Of a DNA stretch of 64,000 bases, positions 12,700 through 55,160 are shown piece after piece; position 1 is the stretch's first letter; the number at the start of each line of letters is the position of its first letter. Source of the DNA: a virus. Taxonomy: Duplodnaviria; Caudoviricetes. The position numbers were made by a program, and so were the translations under genes. A model generated the notes under the pieces. That model saw only the letters and a program-made list of their open reading frames with translations, was not told the origin of the DNA and made no database searches. The stretch lies in IMG/VR virus record IMGVR_UViG_3300010149_000008. One strand, 5' to 3'.

Positions 12700-13443
12700 A
12701 TGAGAAAAGTCATTCAGACAAAAGAAGTTTTAAAAGAATGGAATTCTTTTTTAATAAAAGAATCAAATGCTGATAGAGTAAAAAGGATGATTGATGATCT
12801 AGAAAGCTTTGGAAAACAAATTCATATTACAGAGCCAAGTAAAAGCGTTATTGTAATTACTTATGGAAAAAATTACACTAGCGGTAATCGAGATGCATCA
12901 AAAAACTTATTTGGACAGATACGCTGTTCAGACACTTCAGCGTCATATGATGATAAACAAAAAGGCATTGGAGCAGGAGAAACAAACTCTTGTTGGGAAG
13001 TTGATTTAACTAGTCACACTACTAAGGGAATGGGTCCTTTGCTTTATGAAGTGCTTATTGAATATATTAGCAATATAAAAAGAGCTTCGCTTAAACCAGA
13101 TGCATCCTCAGTTTCTGATTTAGCAAAAAATGTGTGGAATAAGTTTAACGATAGACCGCAGAACGATGTTAAAAAAATTCAGTTAGATGTTGGTGAAAAA
13201 ACTGTATATAGATTTAAGAGATACAAAAACCAAGATGTTAAACAACTAACACCTGACAATGTTGAAGATGATACGATGCAGGATTCATCAATAAGAGACA
13301 AAGGTTTTGATGCTTGGGAAGAAAGTGCTTTAAGTAAAGCCTATAAAAAACTAGATATGCCGATTATAGATGAACTTAAAGCTAGAAATCTAATTATAAT
13401 GCCTAAAACATTTAAAAGCAAACTAGGCAGTGCATGGGGTTAA
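12700..13443 (+). CDS. GNAT-like putative internal head protein, paralogue 1, with C-terminal FKSKLGSAWG tag
   Basis: VLKEWNSFLIKES leader; KGMGPLLYEVLIEY (GNAT motif-A-like); QLD...LTP...DD shared with 45610 and 46323. Confidence 0.7.
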   Translation: MRKVIQTKEVLKEWNSFLIKESNADRVKRMIDDLESFGKQIHITEPSKSVIVITYGKNYTSGNRDASKNLFGQIRCSDTSASYDDKQKGIGAGETNSCWEVDLTSHTTKGMGPLLYEVLIEYISNIKRASLKPDASSVSDLAKNVWNKFNDRPQNDVKKIQLDVGEKTVYRFKRYKNQDVKQLTPDNVEDDTMQDSSIRDKGFDAWEESALSKAYKKLDMPIIDELKARNLIIMPKTFKSKLGSAWG

Positions 13444-28422: not shown

Positions 28423-28662
28423 TTATTCTACACTCGCCCAAATATCTTGCTCAAGATCAAAAGACACATAGCCTTCTTGCAATAACTCATCAAGCGAATT
28501 AAAAACATGAGACTTGTTAATCTGAGCATGTTCTTCAGAGTCTTTCTTATTAAAAACTTTATCACATATTTCGCTTAGAGATATACCTTTTACTCCACCA
28601 GAGTTGATAGCATTAAATACTCTATTTTTAATCTCTTCTTTCATATTATTTAAAATTGCCAT
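28423..28662 (-). CDS. Small winged-HTH-like protein
   Basis: GISLSEIC...HVFNSLDELLQEGYV. Confidence 0.55.
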   Translation of the reverse strand: MAILNNMKEEIKNRVFNAINSGGVKGISLSEICDKVFNKKDSEEHAQINKSHVFNSLDELLQEGYVSFDLEQDIWASVE

Positions 28663-30851: not shown

Positions 30852-31352
30852 AATCTAATCTCCAATCATAAATAATTAAAATAACTAAATACACCTAACT
30901 CTCTCATTATAAACAAATATATGTCTACTTAACACGCACTCAATTCAAATCTCATATCCCTTCAATCCACAATATCAACGCTAAAAAACTAAACGTCACT
31001 AACATCACTTCTAAAAACTCATACATCACCTCATCTCAACCAGTAATGTAACTCTTCAAAACTCCTCAACTCAGGCTCAATACTTCCACTCATATCTCTT
31101 TATAACCCTTCTTCTTTATTACCACCTGTCAACAACAAGTGGCTGTATTTAATCTCTGTTAACGTTAATATATAAACACAACAGTTAATACATAAACGAC
31201 GTAAAATGTAAAACAGAATAAACCAGAGAATAACTGCAATATAATCTGACTAGCACACGGGACTTAGCTCTAGACACACTCTGATTTGATTAGACTTTTA
31301 TATATAAAATGACTGGGCGACGCGTGAGAGCGTGCGATGTCATGGCGGTGTG

Positions 31353-31628
31353 TCAGTGATGTGTTTTGTGGTATTCTTCGAAGTCGTAGTTTACGTTTTC
31401 AAAGCTTTCTTGAACGTGTACAGACTTTCCGCTATCGAAGTGTACCCAGCAGCTTTCATTGCTTGTTTCTGAATTGTTATTTTGTGTTTGTGGTGAAACA
31501 TGTTCGATAACGTGAGAGACGCTAGCCATTGATACTGTCATTCTGCTGCCGCTATTAACTGTGACGTATGAAGTAAGTGATGTCATATGTATAATCCTTT
31601 GATATGTATGTTTTGTTGTTTTGTACAA
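31353..31628 (-). CDS. Hypothetical protein
   Basis: Likely start MTSLTSY after AAAGGA. Confidence 0.6.
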   Translation of the reverse strand: MYKTTKHTYQRIIHMTSLTSYVTVNSGSRMTVSMASVSHVIEHVSPQTQNNNSETSNESCWVHFDSGKSVHVQESFENVNYDFEEYHKTHH

Positions 31629-31657
31629 ATAAGTTTTGTTTGTTATAGTATAATAGA

Positions 31658-31918
31658 TTAAAGAGATAGAAAAGATGTATTAGCTGTTTCTACAGTTTCG
31701 TTTGTTTCATTATCGATGACCGTCATTTCTATCTGTTTGTTTTCCAAGTCCCATCTTAAACAGTTGTGTTCGTCTGTTATAGGTGAAGTAAGTTCGCATA
31801 ACAAGTCAATTTTTTTATTAACAGCTTCTTTATTAACCCTAGGGTAATATTCAGTTTTAGGAAGTTGTTTTTTGTTTGCCGGTAATGAAGTGTGTATGAT
31901 GTATACTCTGTATTGCAT
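31658..31918 (-). CDS. Hypothetical protein
   Basis: Promoter 31961-31991. Confidence 0.6.
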   Translation of the reverse strand: MQYRVYIIHTSLPANKKQLPKTEYYPRVNKEAVNKKIDLLCELTSPITDEHNCLRWDLENKQIEMTVIDNETNETVETANTSFLSL

Positions 31919-32276
31919 ATAGTTAATATTCTTTTTGTAGATTTGTTTGAATGATGTTATATTATATAATGATGATTAAACAATGTGCACGTATTGTGCG
32001 AGGACGAAGCTGGAGGTGGCTGAGCCGAATAAGCTATTAGCCGGGCTCGGAGTGAGCATTGTGAATGTGTGCACTGAGAAGAAAAGCTGCTTTCTCGTTG
32101 TGGAGGTACAATAGAGCGTTTATTATTTTGTTTGCGCTCATACATAGCAAGCTTATAAAAGAATTCTTTTGCGTCACAGTTTAAAGAAAAAAGGTTCATT
32201 ATAATCTCTTTTAGCTAATATTACACGCCGCGCGACGACGCGAAAGGTTAGAAACACGGTTAACGTTGGCATAGTG

Positions 32277-32305
32277 AAGCAGCTCAGTTCGCGATAGAGC
32301 TGCTT
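32277..32305. other. Stable hairpin (terminator or RNase III-type site)
   Basis: AAGCAGCTC-N11-GAGCTGCTT 9-bp stem downstream of 32333 gene; no clear U-tract. Confidence 0.5.
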
Positions 32306-32332
32306 GATTACTGCTTTTTGCGGGGGCTGGAG

Positions 32333-32680
32333 TCAATTATTGTTTAGATACATATTGCTGAACTTTATCTGCATCTCTGTAGGGACATCGTACGAGTCTT
32401 TACTGACTGCGAGCGGGATATCGCCGAACGTGTCGAAAGCTTGGATGACTGATAAGACTGTTGCGACATTGGGGATAACGCGCGTTCCGTCTTTAAGATA
32501 GTGAGGAATGATAAAGCGATAATGTTGAGCACGTTCTATGATGTTATCTTTTTTAGAAGCTGATAGACCTTGTGGTATTGACCACGTTGCGAAGTCAGAC
32601 ATAGATATATCCTTTGTGTGTTGGTATGTATAGCCTAGAGAGTATATTATACTTCTAGGTAGTGTCACTGTGCACGTCAC
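32333..32680 (-). CDS. Hypothetical protein (likely start near 32602, MSDFAT)
   Basis: AAAGGA RBS before MSDF; the track start lies inside promoter 32646-32676. Confidence 0.55.
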   Translation of the reverse strand: MTCTVTLPRSIIYSLGYTYQHTKDISMSDFATWSIPQGLSASKKDNIIERAQHYRFIIPHYLKDGTRVIPNVATVLSVIQAFDTFGDIPLAVSKDSYDVPTEMQIKFSNMYLNNN

Positions 32681-32747
32681 GTGACGACGCAGCGGGTGGT
32701 AGTTATGCCGGGAAGATGAGTTATATTAAAGGCCGTAGCCTTAAGAC

Positions 32748-33722
32748 TTAGCTGTTAGCGAAGATGTCTTCATCCATGTCTTCGATATCAAAGTCGTTTA
32801 AGTCATCGGCAAGATCTTCAAGAGTTAATACTTCTTCAGTTTCGGTCGCGACGTCTTCAGTTGTTTGATCAGCTTCAGCTTCTGTTTCTTTTGCTTCAGG
32901 CTTCGCGATGACTTCTAGCTTTTTTGAGTGAGGAGTCCCATCTAGAGTTTCGATAACATTTTCTAGGTCAGCTGTTGGGATATAATGTAGATGTTTCGGG
33001 TGATCATCAGTTGCGCCGTTAATGCGAACTTCAAATGCAGCGGATTGAACTCCATTATCTAGACGAGGGCCTGAAAATCTGATCCATGCATAACCAGCTT
33101 CTTTAATGAATGCTCTGTAATTAGATGTATCTGAGTTTTCTTCATCAAACTTATTTAGAGTTTCTTCGATATCGCTGATTTGTAGCTTTACCCATTTAGC
33201 TCCGCGTCCTCCGAACTGAGCTTTGAGGACTGATCGCCAATCTGTACCATCAGCTGCCTTAGCTGTTCGACCGCAGAGATGTTTGATATCAGATTTGATT
33301 AGATTATCTAGATGACGTTTGAATTCAGTTACCTTTGGAGATCCGCCGTCTTGAGTGAACTGATTGAAAAGTTGAATGATAAGATCTTGTGAGCTCATGT
33401 TAACCTCATTGTTATTAGGAGTTGAATTAATTGAGTTATCCATGTTATTGTCCTCAGGATTGATTGGTTGGGGTTGTTGAGTTATTGTATCATTGTTGTT
33501 TTCTGTTTTACACGCTTCGATTATTTCCCAGTCATATACCAGCCAACCATGTTCATCACTCAGTGCGTCAGTGATTTGATAGCTGTCAACTGCAGTTGGA
33601 TCTTCGAAGTATTCAGTAAGGTCTACTACGATTGGGATACCGTTTTCTTCAGCAAACTTATCATGTTCCTCAGTGTTATCAGGGTTAGGTAAGTCAAAGT
33701 CCCAGATGATTTGAATATGCAT
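32748..33722 (-). CDS. GRG/AWIR paralogue family copy 3 with extra N-terminal domain and acidic tail
   Basis: GGSPKVTEFKRH, FGGRGAKW, GYAWIRFSGPR, FEVR, GTPHSKKLE; internal RBS+ATG at 33443 and 33398. Confidence 0.8.
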   Translation of the reverse strand: MHIQIIWDFDLPNPDNTEEHDKFAEENGIPIVVDLTEYFEDPTAVDSYQITDALSDEHGWLVYDWEIIEACKTENNNDTITQQPQPINPEDNNMDNSINSTPNNNEVNMSSQDLIIQLFNQFTQDGGSPKVTEFKRHLDNLIKSDIKHLCGRTAKAADGTDWRSVLKAQFGGRGAKWVKLQISDIEETLNKFDEENSDTSNYRAFIKEAGYAWIRFSGPRLDNGVQSAAFEVRINGATDDHPKHLHYIPTADLENVIETLDGTPHSKKLEVIAKPEAKETEAEADQTTEDVATETEEVLTLEDLADDLNDFDIEDMDEDIFANS

Positions 33723-33759
33723 ATTGTATCCTTTATTGGATGAGTGGTGGTGATGGTTT

Positions 33760-33790
33760 ATTATAATATGTGTTTTATCTAAGTTACACG
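33760..33790 (-). promoter_or_regulatory. Early-type promoter with upstream CGACGAC motif
   Basis: CGTGTAA-N18-TATAAT; CGACGACCC at 33800. Confidence 0.75.
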
Positions 33791-34063
33791 CACAAAGTGC
33801 GACGACCCCTAGGGTTGTAACCCCTAATCATTTAAAGTGCTCCTCTTTTAAAGTCATAGATAGCTGAGATTATTGCAAAAACGCCGATGCAAATTGCTCC
33901 TTGAATTGGGTAAGCAAGAATAAACCCAATTGCAAAAGAAATGAAAATATATATTAAGATCGATGCTAAAAGTAATGCCGGCATAATATATGCTCCTTAT
34001 AATGATTGGGTGGGGTAGATGGTTTATTATAATATAGGTATTAACTTACTTACACGCTTAGAG

Positions 34064-34261
34064 TTAGCTATCGTCGAGATGTGCCATAAGATCGTTCATG
34101 TTTGGCTGTTCTTCTTCAACTTCAGAATCGAAGTAAATAATACCTTCGTTTTCTTCAAACTCCATCCCGTCGTTAATTGATCGTTGAATGAATTTGATAG
34201 ACGATAGATTGTTGACCTTAATAGTCATATTGACATTAACAAAGAATGCTTTGTTTTTCAT
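34064..34261 (-). CDS. Hypothetical acidic protein
   Basis: Own promoter 34304-34334. Confidence 0.6.
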   Translation of the reverse strand: MKNKAFFVNVNMTIKVNNLSSIKFIQRSINDGMEFEENEGIIYFDSEVEEEQPNMNDLMAHLDDS

Positions 34262-34294
34262 AATTTAAAGTCCTTATTGGATGAGTGGTTGTGG

Positions 34295-34336
34295 TGATGG
34301 TTTATTATAATATGGATTGTATCTTATTTACACGCT
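34295..34336 (-). repeat. 42-bp promoter cassette, copy 1
   Basis: Identical to 34629-34670. Confidence 0.9.
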
Positions 34337-34343
34337 AAATGAA

Positions 34344-34604
34344 TTAGCCAATAGCTTCCATTTCAGCCATCAATCTTTCTGAACAGATTACTGATCCAGT
34401 AGCTTTAACTGTAGCAACTTCTTCAGGTCCTCCATCTTCCATTTCATACGTTATATAAGCTTCAGTATTGTCATCATTAAAACCCATTGAGCTCCAATAA
34501 CCTGAAAGATTTGAATGTGTTTCAGAAAGAATATCATTAACAGTAAAATAATTTAAGGGTTGAGGTAGGGGAGAAAGTTTTTTATTAGGACTTAAATCTT
34601 CCAT
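34344..34604 (-). CDS. Hypothetical acidic protein
   Basis: Own promoter 34638-34668. Confidence 0.6.
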   Translation of the reverse strand: MEDLSPNKKLSPLPQPLNYFTVNDILSETHSNLSGYWSSMGFNDDNTEAYITYEMEDGGPEEVATVKATGSVICSERLMAEMEAIG

Positions 34605-34628
34605 AATAATTCCTTTAATTAGTGCCGT

Positions 34629-34670
34629 TGATGGTTTATTATAATATGGATTGTATCTTATTTACACGCT
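34629..34670 (-). repeat. 42-bp promoter cassette, copy 2
   Basis: Identical to 34295-34336. Confidence 0.9.
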
Positions 34671-34912
34671 GATAGTTTCTTCTTTATTTTATCTTCGATA
34701 CGCCTGAGATCTTCTAGTTTTCCAGATAAGCCGTTGTTAGCTTGTTCTACAACTTGTGCAACAATAGTCACGTTAAGATATCTTTTCAGATCTGATCTAG
34801 ACATTTTATCAATATTCATATTGTATCCTTTTAGTTGATTGGTTGTTATGTTTTATTATACTACATAGTTAAATGTATTACACGTCGTTTGTTATCTACC
34901 ATTCCATTCTTA

Positions 34913-35257
34913 TTACCTAGACAAATGATATTGAAGATCCTCGAGGGTGGTGTGAAACATCTTAGCCTCTGCAGACATACCTTCTTGCGCAAACTTCCTT
35001 AACACAGCAGACGTAGAACGTGCCATACCAACATAGTCTGTGTAACCAAGAGAGAAGTCTTCGCACTTCCTCACATCGCCGAGGAGTGAAGTCTTTGCTG
35101 AGTGCAAGTCAATCATACCGTTATTAAAGGACATCTCTAACTCAAGATAACCACCGAAGAAAGGCAACTTGACCGTCTTAGACTTGTTGTAGTTACTAAG
35201 CTTCAGGTCATGAAAGAATTGCTGGAGTCGCTTGTCAAAGTCAGGAAAGTTTCTCAT
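34913..35257 (-). CDS. Hypothetical protein
   Basis: Own promoter 35290-35320. Confidence 0.65.
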   Translation of the reverse strand: MRNFPDFDKRLQQFFHDLKLSNYNKSKTVKLPFFGGYLELEMSFNNGMIDLHSAKTSLLGDVRKCEDFSLGYTDYVGMARSTSAVLRKFAQEGMSAEAKMFHTTLEDLQYHLSR

Positions 35258-35700
35258 TTTGAATCCTTGTTGGTTAGTGGTTATGGTTTATTATACACTA
35301 ATAATGAAACTTTATACACGCATCGCGATGAGGTCTGTCGTCGCGACTAGTTCTATATATTATATTATAGATGGTTATATACCACCTACCTTGAACCGAA
35401 GCGGGCACGACGACGCAGGCCTAGACCTAGACAAGTCAGTTATTATTCTCATTATTATTTAAATTGTTAACTGTAATAACTAAAGGTTCTTCGAAAGTAA
35501 TAAACTCTACTTTCGGTTGCGTCTCGTTATTAGCAGCAACAAATGCAAATGTAGAAAGAAGTGCTGAAGCGATTAGTGTCATGATGTCGTATCGATCGAA
35601 CATGTATCTCCTAGTTTACAGATTAATGTATGTTTTATTTGAGTTGTTAGTATGAATGTTATAACTTAGTTGCACAGTAACTCGATAATCGACCCAGGGT

Positions 35701-36225
35701 CTATGTCATCTGAGTAAGATCCTCGTTGCGCGACTTAACATCCTCGAGAAAAGAAAGGATCATCTTCTCATGATCATCGATATGAGATGTATCGAGACCA
35801 CCAGCAGCTTGAACGTCTCTCATCTTATCAAGTCGAATATCGAACCACTTAAAACCATCAAGCAAGATTTGCTTCGGAGCGACGTCAGCTGGCTTGAACT
35901 CCTCACTCATGTCGAATCCGTCACCATTGATGTGATCCCACTTACTGACACCATGATAGTGACCCAAGATATCGTCGTAGTCTGTGCAGTTCGACCATCC
36001 TGAGTTCCAGTAGACGTAGCCATGCTCATTCTTCATGAAATCCTTCGCATCGCTGAAAGCCTTACTAAGCTCAGGATCGAGAGACTCGATGTAGCTGTCG
36101 CGGATGTTTCGGAGCTCTTCTGTCTCGCGGAAACGCTCGCTAAAAGCCTCGATGCTGTTCCACATTTCGTGGTAAGCATTGTGGTTATGCGTGATAGTGT
36201 CTCTAACTTGTTGTCTTGTTGGCAT
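35701..36225 (-). CDS. Hypothetical protein
   Basis: AAAGGA RBS; GC-richer codon usage. Confidence 0.7.
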   Translation of the reverse strand: MPTRQQVRDTITHNHNAYHEMWNSIEAFSERFRETEELRNIRDSYIESLDPELSKAFSDAKDFMKNEHGYVYWNSGWSNCTDYDDILGHYHGVSKWDHINGDGFDMSEEFKPADVAPKQILLDGFKWFDIRLDKMRDVQAAGGLDTSHIDDHEKMILSFLEDVKSRNEDLTQMT

Positions 36226-36276
36226 GCCAGTTTCCTTTAACGTAGGTGTTATGATGATAGGTAAAGTATTTAAACG

Positions 36277-36498
36277 TCAGTCAATAGGCAAACCAAATCT
36301 AGACTTTGCCTTTCGGATATTGTAGTCTAATGTTGATCTAGAAGTTGCGCTTCCTGCGTAAGTTTTAATTTCTGTTCCTTTAACACCCGCGAATATAAGA
36401 AAGCCGCCTTTCTTGTCACTTTCAAACCAAACGCTATGTTGAGGTTTGTTAGCTAAACGTTTACGGAATGGACGTCCTTTTCTTTGTTCGTTGATCAT
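36277..36498 (-). CDS. Hypothetical basic protein
   Basis: AAGGAG RBS, promoter 36538-36568. Confidence 0.65.
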   Translation of the reverse strand: MINEQRKGRPFRKRLANKPQHSVWFESDKKGGFLIFAGVKGTEIKTYAGSATSRSTLDYNIRKAKSRFGLPID

Positions 36499-36593
36499 AA
36501 TGATCTCCTTGTGTTGTTTGTTATGCCTTGTGAATGTATTATACCATGATTAATATCTAGTTTGCACGCATCGGGTCGACGCTGCGGGTAGTA

Positions 36594-37010
36594 TTAACTT
36601 CTGTTCTTGCTGTTTGCAATCCTTACAAGTTGTGCTGAATGTTTGAGTGTAATCTTTCTTGCTCTATCCATTACTGTTCCTCCATTTTGTGCATATCTAC
36701 CAAGAACAGCTGCACATGCGTAATGACTTAAAGACTTCTTGGGGAAAACTTTCATGTTTCTATCATTAAGACCGAGAATCCATCTAGCCATTCTAGTTCC
36801 AGCTTTAGCATCTGCAGCAGAGAAACCTATGCTATTAAGATTATTTGTATTCGCAGTTTTCTGCTCGTCTCTAGTTTGCATCTCGAACAGTCGCACGATG
36901 CCTCTCATCACTGCATCATCATTAGTCATTAATAGCTGATCGATGTCTTCTCGCGTCCATATCTTTATTTTCATTGGAGTGTTCTCTTTGTTTGTTGGTT
37001 TGTTGTTCAA
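36594..37010 (-). CDS. Conserved phage hypothetical protein
   Basis: AVMRGIVRLFEMQTRDEQ...NSIGFSAADA motif recalled from phage proteins. Confidence 0.7.
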   Translation of the reverse strand: MNNKPTNKENTPMKIKIWTREDIDQLLMTNDDAVMRGIVRLFEMQTRDEQKTANTNNLNSIGFSAADAKAGTRMARWILGLNDRNMKVFPKKSLSHYACAAVLGRYAQNGGTVMDRARKITLKHSAQLVRIANSKNRS

Positions 37011-37223
37011 TGAAGTTCTCTATGTTTTATTGATGTTGATGAGTAGTTATTGCGTCGTTAAACGTCGTCATTATTCATTTTGCTTAACTCTTTTTCTTCA
37101 TCCCATGTATACTCGACGTATATATTTCCAATAACAAACCCGAGTGATAATGTAACGATTGAAGCCACGATCATTTGTTCCTCCTTATGTTTTATTATAC
37201 ATTGTCTTTCGTCGTCTTACACG

Positions 37224-37493
37224 TTACGGGTTCTCTGGGAAATGTTCCTCCTTTATATCTTGTGTTCGAACTTCACATTCATCTCGGAAGAGAACGTATC
37301 CGACTTCGTGATTTGTAACCTTGTCATTCGTCACCAAGATAAACGTATATCTTGTTTCGTCACCGTCTAGACCTCGATCTAGATCATCAGTCACTAATCG
37401 TTTCCCCTCTTTGATCGAGGTAAAAGGACCAAACAATTCTGTTGAATCAGTATATCCTCGTTGAGTAACTGTGATAAATATCTGATCTGTCAT
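37224..37493 (-). CDS. Hypothetical protein
   Basis: GAGG RBS, promoter 37542-37572. Confidence 0.65.
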   Translation of the reverse strand: MTDQIFITVTQRGYTDSTELFGPFTSIKEGKRLVTDDLDRGLDGDETRYTFILVTNDKVTNHEVGYVLFRDECEVRTQDIKEEHFPENP

Positions 37494-37607
37494 ATTAAAC
37501 CTCTCGTCGTATCGTTAATGATTGTTTGTCCTTACATCTATATTATACCACCGGTCCAAAACTATTTACACGTCGATGACGACGCTACTGGCCGTAGCCA
37601 CTGCGAA

Positions 37608-37997
37608 TTAGTAACCCATAACTTCGTTATAAGCATCGCATCCACCCATCATGCCAGCCTCCATCGCGATCTCACGACGCCAATCTTCCATCCACTCATC
37701 GTCATCAGCTGCATCATCTGCTTCACGGATTAACTTGACATCGTCAGTGTCCCATGGATGGAAGAGCATGTCGTAAACCATTGTTCCACTTGCAAGACGT
37801 CGCCCACAAAGCTTGTCCTCGTAATCGTCTCCTTCGTAAAACCAGATCGCATAACCTTCAGCTCTTAGCTTTTCGTCGCACATCGCGATCATCTCTTCTT
37901 CAGACATGTCACTCTCCTCAGAAAGGATCATCTCATCTGACCAGTCATCTTCGTTGCGAGGATCATTGTTGCTGCCTGTAATAAATAATGCTTTCAT
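37608..37997 (-). CDS. Hypothetical highly acidic protein
   Basis: AAGGA RBS; ends EAGMMGGCDAYNEVMGY. Confidence 0.7.
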   Translation of the reverse strand: MKALFITGSNNDPRNEDDWSDEMILSEESDMSEEEMIAMCDEKLRAEGYAIWFYEGDDYEDKLCGRRLASGTMVYDMLFHPWDTDDVKLIREADDAADDDEWMEDWRREIAMEAGMMGGCDAYNEVMGY

Positions 37998-38293
37998 ACT
38001 GTTTCCTTAATCGTTAAGTTGTAAAGTTAAATTGAGATTGAGACGCTTATCGGGTCATAGCCAAATAACGAATGCGATAAACGCGAGATAAGTGATAATA
38101 TCAGGTATCATATAAACTTCCAAGTGAAACCTCCTTACCGAGTGAATGGATTGTAGATATATATTGTTTGCCTTACATCTATATTATAGATTAAGATATA
38201 AATTATTTACACGTATCGTCACGACGCGACCAAGGCTGGTCACGCCAAGTCACCTTAGATCAGGTCACTTATCGAAGCTTCGCGACCAGAGGA

Positions 38294-39109
38294 TTAGCCC
38301 TCGTAAGTGCCAAAGAGATCTTCATCGCCATCTTCGTCGAATTGATCAGCGCCAAGTCCTTCACTCGCGAGGAAGTCTTCCCAGTCTTCAGGATTATCAG
38401 TTGTTGGAGGCTCAGCGTGAGCTGAACCACCGTCGTCGTAAGGATTCAGCTCGGATGCGCTAAGCTCTTGAACTTCATAGTTCTCATCAGTCTCGTCGCT
38501 CACTGGATCATCGCTCACTGGATCATCGCTAGGCTTTACTTCGTCTTTCGTCGCGATTACCTCGAGCTTTAGGGAATGAGGAGTACCTTTGAGAGGACTA
38601 ATCTTATCATCAAGCTCCTCATCTAAGATGTAATGGAGAGACTTAGGGCAGTCATAAGTAGATCCAACTGTTCGAACTTCGAAAGCTGCCATGTTCTTTT
38701 GTTCTTTGTTCTTTCCCGTCGTGACGCGAGGTCCCGCGTAGCGTATCCAAGCATGGCCGGCTTCTTCAGTCCAAGATCGATAATCAGCTGTATCAAAGCC
38801 TTCATCATCAAGTCGATCAAGAGTTAATGAAAGCTCATCATTTGAAACTTCCTGCCACTTAGCTCCTCTGCCGGCAAAACGAGCTTTCTGAACTGAACGC
38901 CAAGATGATCCATCGACAGCAGATGATCCTCGACCTGAACAGAGTGGCTTGATCTTGTCCTTGATAAGACGATCAATGTGACGCTTGAACTCTGTTACTT
39001 TTGGCGATCCACCTGCAGCAATAAAGTCGTTGAACAGGTTTTCGATTAAACTGTAATGATCCATAGGAGTCTCCTGGACTTGAGTTTGGGTTTGAGTTGC
39101 GTTAGACAT
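38294..39109 (-). CDS. GRG/AWIR paralogue family copy 4 with acidic tail
   Basis: GGSPKVTEFKRH, FAGRGAKW, GHAWIRYAGPR, FEVR, GTPHSLKLE; GGAG RBS, promoter 39150-39180. Confidence 0.8.
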   Translation of the reverse strand: MSNATQTQTQVQETPMDHYSLIENLFNDFIAAGGSPKVTEFKRHIDRLIKDKIKPLCSGRGSSAVDGSSWRSVQKARFAGRGAKWQEVSNDELSLTLDRLDDEGFDTADYRSWTEEAGHAWIRYAGPRVTTGKNKEQKNMAAFEVRTVGSTYDCPKSLHYILDEELDDKISPLKGTPHSLKLEVIATKDEVKPSDDPVSDDPVSDETDENYEVQELSASELNPYDDGGSAHAEPPTTDNPEDWEDFLASEGLGADQFDEDGDEDLFGTYEG

Positions 39110-39149
39110 GTTTTTCTCCTCAGAGATGATTGATTGGGGATGATGAGAT

Positions 39150-39180
39150 ATTATAAAACTGTTTAAACAAGTTATGCACG
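39150..39180 (-). promoter_or_regulatory. Early-type promoter with upstream CGACGAAGC
   Basis: CGTGCAT-N18-TATAAT; motif at 39190. Confidence 0.75.
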
Positions 39181-39644
39181 CCGATGACCCGACGAAGCCG
39201 AGGCTATAATCACCAGTACTTAATCAAAGCTACTGGTATAGCGAGCATAAACAACGATAACATTATCGGTATGAAGCCTTCCATGTTACTCCTTTCTTCA
39301 GATATATGTTGTGGGATGAGGTGTTGCCTTATATCTACATTATAGACTAAGGCCAAACTAGTTTACACGTGGCCCGACGAAGCGGACCGTGGTTAACTGA
39401 GATTATCTTTATCGATGCGGATCGGAACCTTTCCTACCCTACATCTTTATTATACCAAAACTGTCAGCACGTTACACGCCAGATCTCCTCCACCAGAACT
39501 TCTCACTACCTCAGCCCGACGTGTAAAAGGACTGATGTTCTGTGGATGATAACCTACATTGTCAAAGAATTCTTGGGAGGAGACCGGTTAAACCCCGATC
39601 ATCCAGTGGAACCACCTCTGGGTTCCTTTCCCTCCTTATGTTTT

Positions 39645-39675
39645 ATTATACAACAGTCTCGTCGAGAGATACACG
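39645..39675 (-). promoter_or_regulatory. Rightmost early-type promoter
   Basis: CGTGTAT-N18-TATAAT adjoining the GC-rich repeats. Confidence 0.7.
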
Positions 39676-39800
39676 TACGCCCCCTACGGGCCCCGGCCCT
39701 CTAAAGGGCCCCTCTAGAGCCCCCCTCTAGGAGCCCTCTGAAACTCAGTGTGCACGCCCGCGGGGGCCGGCTAAGTTAACTACCCGAAATTTCTTCGCGG
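39676..39800. repeat. GC-rich degenerate tandem repeats (CCCTCT[A/G]) at the strand-switch point
   Basis: GGCCCTCTAAAG-GGCCCCTCTAGAG-CCCCCCTCTAGGAG-CCCTCTGAAA followed by GCCCGCGGGGGCCGG. Confidence 0.7.
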
Positions 39801-39996
39801 GACTTTTCGAAAAAGTTTTAGGGTACACACTTGACCACACCATCTGAATATTTTGTGTATACGATTAAGTTGTGTAATACTATCAATGAGCGTTTGCGGC
39901 ACTTATTTGGAATAGTAATTTTTCAGTTTTGTGCAAAAAACTTCGGGAGAAATTTCCGAAAACTTTTACATTTTTATTGATAAATAAATTTAACTA

Positions 39997-40013
39997 ATAT
40001 TTATTATAGAAAG
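39997..40013 (+). promoter_or_regulatory. Candidate late promoter element
   Basis: ATATTTATTATAGAAAG, identical to 11821-11837 (minus). Confidence 0.55.
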
Positions 40014-40017
40014 AGTT

Positions 40018-40341
40018 TTGAATATGAGAATAACCGAGAGAAGATTGAGAAGACTGATAAGAAGTGTAATCAAAGAAACTGTTAGCGATTATCGTTTAAG
40101 CGTTGATTTTAGTCAAAAAGTTGAAAGTATGATTGACGAAGTTAAACCAGGGTTTATTAAAAATTGTCGAATGTTAAGAATTTTTGATGAAAGTGACTTA
40201 GATGATTATAAAGTTAGCGATTTTTTAAGAAAGTATTTAGGTGAGGTTATTCATCTTATGGGAGAAGAAACAGCCAAGAGGCGATTTGCCGGCAACTATC
40301 ATAGTGTTACTCAAGATTTTAAAAGATACTTGGGAATGTAA
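40018..40341 (+). CDS. Putative internal head protein
   Basis: MRITERRLRRLIRSVIKE leader; upstream ATATTTATTATAGAAAG. Confidence 0.65.
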   Translation: MNMRITERRLRRLIRSVIKETVSDYRLSVDFSQKVESMIDEVKPGFIKNCRMLRIFDESDLDDYKVSDFLRKYLGEVIHLMGEETAKRRFAGNYHSVTQDFKRYLGM

Positions 40342-40483
40342 AAGATCTTTGTGTGAGATCGAGAGAATATTTTTATCTCGAGCTGGGTGTCGCCTGTGTC
40401 ACGACGTTTATGTGCGTTTTGTGTTTTTTATTTTTTTTATGAAATATATAGTATGTGTATAAAAGAATGAATAGAGAAAAAAC

Positions 40484-41323
40484 ATGTTATTAAAAGAATA
40501 CGTTTCGTTTTACATAAAAGAAGCTATTTCACATAAAAAGATAAGTTTAGTTGTAAATGAGTTGAATAAAATAACTATGAATTATAGAGCTAGTAGTAGT
40601 AGCTATTCATTGTATTATGACTTAGTTAAAGTTGTTGACAAGTTTGGATTAAAAAAGCTAGGAGCAGGTGTTTCTAGAAAAGCATATTCTTTAGAAAACG
40701 AAGACTGGGTTTTAAAGTTTGCATATGGACATAATGACGTTGATTACTTAGACGCTTTAGACACAAACGCTGAAGAGGTAGAAATTAGTCAAGGGTTTCA
40801 TGGAATGGGATCTCGAGACATGTTTGTTAAAGTTTATGACTGGGATAAGTTGAGCGAGAAGCCTGCTTGGATAATTGCTCAAAAAGTAATAACATTGTCA
40901 GAAGCTTGGCGTACAATGACTTTTTTAGATCTGCAAAAAATATTTCCTACTTTTTGGAATGCTTTGTACAAAGATGCAAAAGAAAAGACATCAAAAAACT
41001 TTTTTTGTGATTTTGTTGCGGATACTATGTTTGAAATTAGTATTGAGTCTTCACTTCGTGGAAAAAATTCAAGTGGTTTAAAAGAAGAAGGTTTTTACAT
41101 AGCTATGAAAGAAGCTGCGATAAGCGAACTGAGTTTAATGCCTATTGAAGCCATCAGGTTTGACTTAGACTTTCTTAGAATTGCTCGAGCATGTGCATAC
41201 AGTAGACCTGATGATATGCACAGTGGCAATATAGGGATAATTCCTTCACGTGATGTTAGCCCAAAAGATATAGTTATATTAGATTATATGTTAGACTTTG
41301 GTTCAGATACTTATACAGTATAA
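40484..41323 (+). CDS. Protein-kinase-like fold protein, paralogue 1
   Basis: LGAGVSRKAY Gly loop, WVLK Lys, EEVE, DMHSGN catalytic loop, VILDY. Confidence 0.75.
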   Translation: MLLKEYVSFYIKEAISHKKISLVVNELNKITMNYRASSSSYSLYYDLVKVVDKFGLKKLGAGVSRKAYSLENEDWVLKFAYGHNDVDYLDALDTNAEEVEISQGFHGMGSRDMFVKVYDWDKLSEKPAWIIAQKVITLSEAWRTMTFLDLQKIFPTFWNALYKDAKEKTSKNFFCDFVADTMFEISIESSLRGKNSSGLKEEGFYIAMKEAAISELSLMPIEAIRFDLDFLRIARACAYSRPDDMHSGNIGIIPSRDVSPKDIVILDYMLDFGSDTYTV

Positions 41324-54688: not shown

Positions 54689-54922
54689 ATGTCACAAGAA
54701 GAACTAGATCAACTTGAACAAGTAGATGAAGTATTAGAGCCTAGCACTAACCAAGAGTTTTACAGTTATATTAAGCTCATGATTGAAAGTATGGAGTCAG
54801 ACGTAATTAAGTCTGGAAATGGCAATAAAGCAGCTGGAACAAGGCTTCGAAAGAGTTTAAGACTCCTAAAATCAACATCAGGAGACTTTGTCAAATTTAC
54901 TCTAGGAAAGTTGGATCGATAA
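54689..54922 (+). CDS. Histone-H1-like (Hc1-type) small DNA-binding protein
   Basis: GNKAAGTRLRKSL motif; AAGGAG RBS. Confidence 0.65.
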   Translation: MSQEELDQLEQVDEVLEPSTNQEFYSYIKLMIESMESDVIKSGNGNKAAGTRLRKSLRLLKSTSGDFVKFTLGKLDR

Positions 54923-54923
54923 T

Positions 54924-55160
54924 TTATTGAGACTTTGCCTTTAACTTGTTTATGGCAGACTTTTCAATTTGACATACCCTCATTCGAGTTATATCAAACA
55001 AATCACCTACTTCTTGAAGAGTATAAATTCTTTTTTGAGAAGCGTTAATAATGCAGTTATTGTCACTTTTTAATTTGTGCCAGTACCTGCATTTTTTATT
55101 TTTGCAAGACACGCTGTTTTTTTTATGTTCATTAAAACAAGTTGTTGTATGTTCACTCAT
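54924..55160 (-). CDS. Sigma70 region-4-like HTH protein with Cys-rich N-terminus
   Basis: YTLQEVGDLFDITRMRVCQIEKSAINKL; C..H..C...KC..W...NC. Confidence 0.75.
   Translation of the reverse strand: MSEHTTTCFNEHKKNSVSCKNKKCRYWHKLKSDNNCIINASQKRIYTLQEVGDLFDITRMRVCQIEKSAINKLKAKSQ

Follow-up and report, generated by a model that had tools for sequence, protein, structure and literature searches.

Early promoters and Box B in the GC-rich block

The DNA described here is a stretch of 64,000 nt from a virus of the Caudoviricetes (Duplodnaviria; IMG/VR record IMGVR_UViG_3300010149_000008), hereafter referred to as the window. Its element of interest is a short asymmetric word, termed Box B, which recurs just upstream of predicted early promoters in a GC-rich block at 32–40 kb. 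The block has a G+C content of 40–45% within a window of ~29% GC, and no blastn match to the block or its neighboring DNA was found among 50,697 phage records. All genes between 4.5 and 39.7 kb are located on the minus strand, and the point of transcription divergence lies at ~39.9 kb. The window additionally contains five tRNA genes as well as genes for a PIN-PhoH protein, a collagen-repeat protein and a helicase which is ~30% identical to helicases of assorted jumbo phages.

Scanning and reading of the sequence revealed 33 predicted promoters of a single class in the window, one per small gene and every one of them serving minus-strand genes. The class follows the pattern CGTG(T/C)A, 18–19 nt, TATAAT and continues into a conserved leader and a Shine-Dalgarno sequence; the −10 box is at consensus, while the −35 box is not TTGACA. 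Seventeen of these promoters fall within the GC-rich block, the other 16 left of it. Box B, defined as GCGTCGTC on the transcribed strand with the core CGTC, accompanies nine of the 17; the 16 on the left, whose upstream DNA is AT-rich, all lack it. In the nine block copies, CGTC begins 10–15 nt before the first base of the −35 box. The eight block promoters that lack Box B mostly abut the upstream stop codon or sit at the very start of the array.

Read on the transcribed (minus) strand, the word is GC(G/T)TCGTC. On the plus strand it appears as GACGAMGC at positions 32003, 32234, 32683, 35409, 37578, 39191, and 39376, with partial copies at 33800 (CGACGACCC), 36577 (CGACGC), and 38221 (ACGACGC) and an inverted copy at 35337. 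GACGAMGC was not found on the opposite strand of the block, and outside the block it occurs only twice (1746 and 50888). The motif coordinates listed in the original prediction all proved correct on re-reading of the sequence, as did its observations that the motif is missing from the same promoter class left of 31.3 kb (0/16) and that the copy at 35408 does not adjoin a working promoter. Some copies belong to a longer module which opens with a second word, box A (see below). The features of the block are:

31962-39675, minus strand: 17 block promoters found by pattern scan as CGTG(T/C)A-N18/19-TATAAT, nine of them with Box B
39375-39383, minus strand: Box B GCTTCGTCG, at 10 nt spacing to the −35 box of promoter 39340-39369
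39190-39198, minus strand: Box B GCTTCGTCG, promoter 39151-39180, for the 271-aa GRG/AWIR gene 38294-39109
38220-38227, minus strand: Box B GCGTCGTG, promoter 38184-38213; full module with box A GTGACTTGG to ~38255
37577-37585, minus strand: Box B GCGTCGTCA, promoter 37543-37572, for the 89-aa gene 37224-37493
36575-36582, minus strand: Box B GCGTCGAC, promoter 36539-36568; short module
33800-33808, minus strand: Box B GGGTCGTCG, promoter 33761-33790, for the 324-aa GRG/AWIR paralog 32748-33722
32682-32690, minus strand: Box B GCGTCGTCA, promoter 32647-32676
32233-32241, minus strand: Box B GCGTCGTCG, promoter 32199-32227; orthologous copies in the related loci L216 and L217
32002-32010, minus strand: Box B GCTTCGTCC, the last in the array, promoter 31962-31991
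35408-35416, minus strand: orphan Box B in sense orientation without a working promoter, in a 178-nt spacer before promoter 35291-35320
35337-35345: inverted Box B copy in the same 178-nt spacer as the orphan

The module at 38220-38227 has near-identical counterparts in the related loci L212 and L213, and an ortholog of the orphan at 35408 is conserved in L217. In the short module at 36575-36582, the stop codon of the gene 36594-37010 lies just 25 nt from the −35 box. The module at 33800 carries a box A (ATGATTAGG) after the TAA stop codon at 33832.

Enrichment, register and conservation of Box B

A word of this kind could have arisen by chance or as a by-product of local composition, since the block is rich in G+C and its spacers are rich in CpG. 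The excess was measured against local composition and position. In a de novo k-mer comparison for which both strands of the block itself served as background, CGTCG (in 8 of the 17 upstream windows, Bonferroni-corrected 3.5e-4) and GCGTCG (5 of 17, 2.5e-3) ranked top. The degenerate word GC[GT]TCG[TA]C was observed upstream of 7 of the 17 promoters, where 0.04 occurrences are expected from per-spacer letter permutation and 0.15 from a per-spacer dinucleotide model, and a count of seven was attained in none of 3000 own-composition simulations.

Related phage loci allowed the same question to be asked independently of the window. Relatives were gathered by a promoter-pattern scan combined with an alignment of the GRG/AWIR early protein, yielding ten IMG/VR and eighty metagenome loci. 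Scanning IMG/VR for the promoter pattern alone returned mostly single chance matches, and the one contig with multiple matches became the first relative. Searching IMG/VR with the 271-aa protein alone retrieved nothing, whereas a three-sequence alignment did retrieve relatives; an 868-aa protein found only distant marine phages through one shared domain. The relatives, whose contigs reach 255,678 bp, stem exclusively from marine viromes and metagenomes, and they share the promoter class, always on the early-gene strand. At −1 to −25 upstream of 80 IMG/VR promoters, the core TCGTC, as defined on the window, is present in 17 cases compared with a tiled background of 1.7% (P 4e-14). The controls at −26 to −50 and on the opposite strand each gave 1 of 80.

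Altogether, 117 sites at canonical spacing were identified in 47 loci of related marine phage contigs, and the core also occurs at 92 of another 327 distinct metagenome promoters. The variant of Box B tracks base composition, with CGTCA in AT-rich loci and CGTCG in GC-richer ones. In L201, a locus of 30.6% GC, Box B occurs at eight promoters in the form (A/T)TCGTCAAC. Alignment A2 compares the orthologous promoter ahead of the 89-aa gene across five phages; CGTC is unchanged in all of them, while the sequence on either side has diverged. As the motif is kept in relatives of ~30% GC, it is not a by-product of GC-rich DNA, and together with the simulations and the enrichment in relatives this refutes a chance origin. 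The restriction to the GC-rich block stated in the original prediction accordingly holds within the window (9 of 17 vs. 0 of 16 promoters) and fails across the lineage, where relatives of ~30% GC retain the (A/T)TCGTCAAC form. In L200 (IMGVR_UViG_3300021378_000009, 12815-12900), three tandem 28-nt units stand just upstream of Box B; these units precede the promoter of the ortholog of the 89-aa gene, likewise in L277, L281, and L284.

The distance between Box B and the promoter, counted between the initial C of CGTC and the first base of the −35 box (CGTGTAA), is narrowly distributed. Of 144 distinct modules, 75 have a distance of 13 nt and 109 (76%) one of 12–14 nt. After clustering of the modules at 60% identity, 29 of 46 still fall at 12–14 nt, as opposed to ~14% under a uniform spread. 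The 6–9 nt that separate Box B from the −35 box show no conservation. With TATAAT at −12 to −7, Box B is positioned at about −51 to −44. The positionally fixed cis-element which had been proposed is thus real, oriented, and located just upstream of the −35 box. This placement also bears on the idea that Box B serves DNA modification, restriction avoidance or the loading of a nucleoid protein with no direct link to RNA polymerase. The two to three CpG dinucleotides per word in an AT-rich genome, and the Hc1 histone H1-like protein encoded at 54689-54922, would suit such a role. A modification target, however, would need neither a single orientation nor a 13-nt register to the −35 box, the word is asymmetric unlike most methyltransferase sites, and AT-rich relatives retain only CGTC. 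We consider this explanation very improbable.

Box B is also coupled to the promoter class across the lineage. With a weight matrix for CTTSG..GCGTCGTC, a strict promoter was seen to follow 85 distinct sites on the sense strand; 42 other sense sites and 19 antisense sites were also found. Among the 42, an AGTGTAA variant of the −35 box follows in many cases, and the GRG/AWIR gene itself contains about ten. The composite pattern GCGTCGTC-N5-7-CGTGYAA-N17-19-TATAAT has one chance-level match in 185,579 prokaryote genomes, whereas its four matches in IMG/VR are all contigs of this lineage. This limitation to the lineage indicates a phage-lineage signal and not a borrowed host promoter.

Finally, Box B is limited to the beginning of the early array. 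Array positions could be compared in five genomes with sufficient sequence (the window, L201, L230, L242, and L206), and in each of them no Box B promoter lies beyond the first 5–8 kb past the divergence point; later promoters of the same class are without the box. In four of the five, the Box B region coincides with a GC-richer block. A G+C excess of 10–15 points over the rest of the genome in the first 5–8 kb of the early array is seen in several lineage members (window, 31950-39750; L230, 9–17 kb; L242, 7–13 kb; L206, 6–12 kb), and this recurrence argues that the GC-rich block is a conserved regional trait, not a recent import into one phage. At the divergence point itself, a stretch of ~200 nt (39886-40087) matches three to five separate places in L242, L205, L202, and L230 at 74–90% identity and is therefore a repeated element before plus-strand genes of those relatives.

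Module architecture and the level of recognition

The motif had been introduced as a free-standing 9-mer, a description that does not survive alignment of the related sites. When modules are aligned on CGTC, conservation reaches ~30 nt further upstream, and Box B emerges as the strongest and most conserved box of a fixed-length intergenic module of ~45 nt which starts at the upstream stop codon. After the stop codon of the preceding early gene come box A (TGAYTYG), a stretch of ~20 nt that is often centered on GTTAYAAC, then CTTSG and GCGTCGTC; 6–9 nt lead on to CGTGTAA, which is separated by 17–18 nt from TATAAT. The consensus of 113 gap-free rows reads TGAcTcG-gg-GTtacaAC-gC-tTcG-t.g-CGTCGtC-(6-9 nt)-CGTGTAA. 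Box A starts 0–3 nt past the stop codon of the upstream gene. Among the nine window copies, four or five have a recognizable box A, and the remaining copies have shorter spacers. In four relatives, a second conserved element, the perfect inverted repeat AGATCTA..TAGATCT, stands between a Box B module and the next promoter (L207, about 1055-1140; L229, about 4001; L242, about 10698; L243, about 5530).

Searches for a structure common to the modules were negative. RNAalifold detected no consensus structure on 144 modules, the longest stems have the length of those in shuffled sequences, and hairpin centers are scattered. Column-pair mutual information on the gapless alignment revealed no Watson-Crick covariation, and compensatory double changes were likewise absent. 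Individual copies do form clear hairpins, among them one at 38228-38251 with a stem of 10 bp and several others in L201 and L206. Over the modules, mean z is −0.8 to −1.0, and the nine copies of the window on average fold no better than shuffles. An intrinsic terminator consists of a G+C-rich hairpin followed directly by a T-run, and no such terminator was found on the transcribed strand in 31300-40000; the scan of this region returned four sites, all on the plus strand inside genes, compared with 5.2 in shuffles. With Rfam 15, only the five tRNAs reach the gathering score in the window, and the best match in 31000-40500 has an E-value of 0.92. By these tests, the lineage conserves sequence boxes at fixed distances, not a structure.

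The reading we favor, tentatively and at somewhat less than an even chance, is that Box B is a promoter-coupled DNA recognition site at about −50, read by a protein and providing common control of immediate-early cassettes. Recognition at the DNA level is suggested by a register that stays fixed over an unconserved gap, by the single orientation, by the link to promoters, by the restriction to the array start and by the lack of a conserved structure. At about −51 to −44, the site would occupy the zone of UP elements and class I activator sites, and as a sequence-specific DNA site it would act jointly with the promoter. It would thereby place the cassettes of the first 5–8 kb, the immediate-early set, under one control, which could be a boost or a shut-off. 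We infer a protein acting on DNA as the reader, be it encoded by the phage, delivered with the virion or supplied by the host, and the direction of control is equally a matter of inference. To judge from sequence, Box B probably marks the first early genes for common control. The sub-regulon which the original prediction had envisaged is borne out insofar as Box B sets apart a subset of promoters in the first 5–8 kb of the window and four further genomes; the dependence on an activator that it had also considered was not seen.

Several findings weigh against a DNA site. Promoters with and without Box B share the same −35 words and spacer lengths, hence no dependence on a factor is visible, and the core promoters of both groups are equally good. 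A few modules lack a promoter, namely some before tRNA genes (L261 and L270), one before a leader (L216) and the orphan at 35408. Since 113 of the 144 aligned rows show almost no gaps over the whole module, inheritance rather than selection could partly account for the fixed spacing. TGAC of box A and GTCG of Box B complement each other in 78% of cells at register 0, compared with 18–30% off register and 58–61% at registers of ±3, where the higher values arise because GTC is repeated in CGTCGTC. In addition, the sense strand of the modules folds somewhat better than the antisense strand (mean z −0.97, P 0.0013, vs. −0.16; Wilcoxon P 0.008). Lastly, no computed test tied any of the candidate readers presented below (Sigma70_r4, winged helix-turn-helix, Hc1-like or GRG/AWIR) to Box B. 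As a separate observation, the modules before tRNA genes, at about 851 in L261 and about 1398 in L270, stand directly before these genes, with no recognizable promoter of the usual class between.

The complementarity and the folding bias fit a role at the RNA level, the main rival reading, which we regard as possible though rather doubtful. According to this explanation, the module is the 3′ end of the upstream message and ends, cuts or stabilizes that message before the next promoter restarts transcription. A start 0–3 nt after the stop codon is where such a signal would be expected, U-G wobbles are common between the two boxes, the last paired base in single-sequence folds usually lies inside or just past CGTC, and modules without a promoter, some of them before tRNA genes, would be accommodated. 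In this scenario, box A and Box B would pair to form the foot of an irregular hairpin, and the element would represent either the terminator or attenuator half of a promoter-early stem-loop (PeSL) or a processing site like those of the T7 early region. The stem-loop of published PeSLs does act as a terminator (PMC2839356). The structure searches described above argue the other way: no T-run follows the module, stems are no longer than in shuffles, and without compensatory double changes the complementarity is merely that of two conserved words. Nor would an RNA signal explain the fixed 13-nt distance to the −35 box.

Other assignments of the boxes were tried and rejected. Compensation by Box B for a weak core promoter was ruled out, as core promoters with and without the box are alike. 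An extracytoplasmic function (ECF) sigma factor promoter, with AAC at −35 and CGTC at −10, would need a spacing of 16–17 nt, and the conserved ACAAC lies only 9–10 nt before CGTC. An IHF site (WATCAANNNNTTR) fits only the TCATCAAC and TCGTCAAC variants of L201 and L206 and not the GCGTCGTC majority. A dyad operator spanning Box B and the −35 box (CGTC...GACG) was discarded because GA precedes the −35 box in just 22% of Box B promoters and 7% of others. For a trans-acting RNA or ribozyme from short transcripts at 39.4–39.65 kb, there was no Rfam match and no complementary word by eye.

Cassettes, known systems and candidate readers

The order of genes in the block differs between the window and L216, L217, and L230 in units bounded by cassettes, each consisting of module, promoter, gene and stop codon. 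Between genomes that are ~70% identical, the best-conserved stretches are the promoter-leader segments at 88–95% identity. In contigs of related strains, the match to the window breaks off at 33790, 37223/37226, 37171, and 34629; in one contig, 34057 is linked directly with 37245, promoter to promoter, and another has ~750 extra nt between 37510 and 37580. These contigs stem from four oligo-dT marine metatranscriptomes of one study and carry no information on RNA starts, ends or strand. Being single low-depth contigs of 90–95% likeness, they provide weak support for the cassette joints.

One of these segments, the promoter and leader at 37171-37226, is 89–95% identical in L203, L205, and L242, in surrounding DNA of roughly 70%. 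Its promoter (37195-37223) carries GACGACGA within the −35/−10 spacer and is followed by a small ORF for a hydrophobic protein of 38 aa (37060-37174, minus strand). In the RNA, the end and 3′ flank of this ORF have the sequence GACGACG..ACGACGC, which complements Box B, probably by coincidence.

Such shuffling raises the question of whether the module is a recombination seam only, kept as a homology patch for the exchange of cassettes, with Box B lacking a regulatory reader. The cassette-bounded differences in gene order, the contig breaks, joint and insertion listed above, and the precedent of PeSLs (PMC2839356, PMC4122927) speak for it. Homology-driven exchange, however, needs long identical stretches and not four invariant bases amid diverged flanks, and CGTC is kept within one genome as well as across phages whose neighboring proteins are only 35–50% identical. 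The promoter and leader offer longer and better conserved patches, and the contig joints come from the low-depth contigs just mentioned. A seam without a reader is therefore improbable, and readings beyond all those discussed in this text are given a smaller chance still.

The closest known systems are the PeSLs of the T4-type phages RB49/phi1, PST/T4, and nt-1/KVP40 (Arbiol et al., 2010, PMC2839356; Comeau et al., 2014, PMC4122927). Their layout comprises a stop codon, a stem-loop, an AT-rich tract, a sigma70-like promoter, a leader and a start codon; they cluster in hyperplastic regions and act as recombination seams (PMC2839356, PMC4122927). The resemblance to the present lineage is considerable. 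Here, too, a cassette made up of stop codon, upstream element, −35, −10, leader, Shine-Dalgarno sequence and ATG is repeated between small early genes, a sigma70-like early promoter heads these genes in 33 predicted copies on one strand, and the cassettes cluster in a variable region where they coincide with seams of gene gain, loss, and reordering. In contrast to the stable stem-loop of a PeSL, no conserved stem-loop or T-run was detected, and it is sequence boxes, not structure, that are conserved across the lineage. The AT-rich tract before the −35 box is replaced by the CG-rich GCGTCGTC and 6–9 mixed nt in a 13-nt register, and the −35 box is CGTGTAA where the PeSL promoter is near-consensus sigma70 (TTGACA). 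Because no conserved stem-loop or terminator was detected, and because of the CG-rich word and the CGTGTAA box, the cassette is filed as a PeSL variant, one that by its sequence would work like a PeSL and has a conserved upstream box in addition. The same modules would then also be seams for the exchange of single early genes between related phages, as PeSL cassettes are.

The comparison can be extended to other regulatory elements. UP elements are A/T tracts at −40 to −60 which are read by the C-terminal domain of the RNA polymerase alpha subunit. With UP elements and class I activator sites, Box B shares a location at about −40 to −60 and a fixed orientation and register to the core promoter. 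It differs from the A/T-rich UP elements in being CG-rich, and from class I activator sites in that the core promoter shows no dependence on it; we are aware of no family of activators whose half-site at −50 is CGTC. Small phage proteins such as phi29 p4 with p6, SPO1 TF1 on hydroxymethyl-uracil DNA, and lambda Cro bind at or near their own early promoters to switch them, and one such protein acting at many early promoters would give the same picture of a sub-regulon. Their sites, however, are palindromic or consist of bent DNA, whereas Box B is asymmetric and generally without a dyad partner. The RNase III sites of T7 and T3 are long irregular hairpins with a conserved structure between early genes. 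They resemble the module in being one conserved element per intergenic space of the early array, transcribed with the upstream gene, and differ from it in their conserved hairpin structure, for which no equivalent was found here.

Several proteins encoded in the window are candidate readers. A 78-aa protein (54924-55160, minus strand) has a Cys-rich N-terminus and a Sigma70_r4 domain (PF04545, E 4.7e-10), so that the sigma region 4 helix-turn-helix named in the original prediction is indeed present. The 77-aa Hc1 histone H1-like protein (54689-54922, plus strand; PF07432, E 7.7e-10) is encoded next to it, and the two genes form a convergent tail-to-tail pair (54689-55160). The winged helix-turn-helix candidate at 28423 has sub-threshold Pfam matches only. 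The GRG/AWIR family, an unnamed marine family of at least 499 clusters at 90% identity, has no Pfam or PHROG match. Its two paralogs in the window (38294-39109 and 32748-33722, both on the minus strand) have an acidic C-terminal tail, and one GRG/AWIR copy is always found near the start of the early array. An AlphaFold model (pLDDT 75) predicts a helical N-terminal part and a small beta-barrel, without a recognizable DNA-binding fold and without a Foldseek match at E 0.001 or better. The best VIA-align Z-score is 5.3, and Tudor-like RNA-polymerase-interacting domains (Mfd, CarD, CdnL, and the UvrD C-terminus) score 3.3–4.9, those of Mfd, CarD, and CdnL 4.2–4.9, which is below the usual noise level of the tool; these matches of the modeled barrel are not evidence of function. 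The tail of the 271-aa protein contains a short tandem repeat (VSDDP twice) and varies in length, and related strains in the RNA-library contigs replace 68–96 nt within it (38414-38511).

A more ambitious form of the DNA-site reading, which we rate as possible though rather doubtful, holds that the tripartite module (TGAYTYG at ~−76, CTTSG, and GCGTCGTC at ~−50) docks a dedicated factor, encoded by the phage or carried in the virion, which switches the immediate-early regulon on or off. The 78-aa protein, which has little beyond the sigma region 4 helix-turn-helix, or a member of the GRG/AWIR family may be this factor. If true, such a dedicated-factor regulatory system would have no described counterpart.

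To our knowledge, almost nothing is known on how uncultured marine jumbo phages order their gene expression. Here, a widespread and abundant family of such giant phages exhibits a defined promoter class together with an upstream box, conserved and exact in its position, that distinguishes the first few early kilobases in every lineage genome examined. The PeSL-like cassette architecture would thereby extend to a lineage with a different promoter, in which conserved boxes replace the conserved hairpin. An oligonucleotide of ~50 nt with the box offers a handle to fish for the reader protein. The presence or absence of the box would furthermore predict which of hundreds of small unknown genes belong to the immediate-early set, which is probably the set for host takeover.

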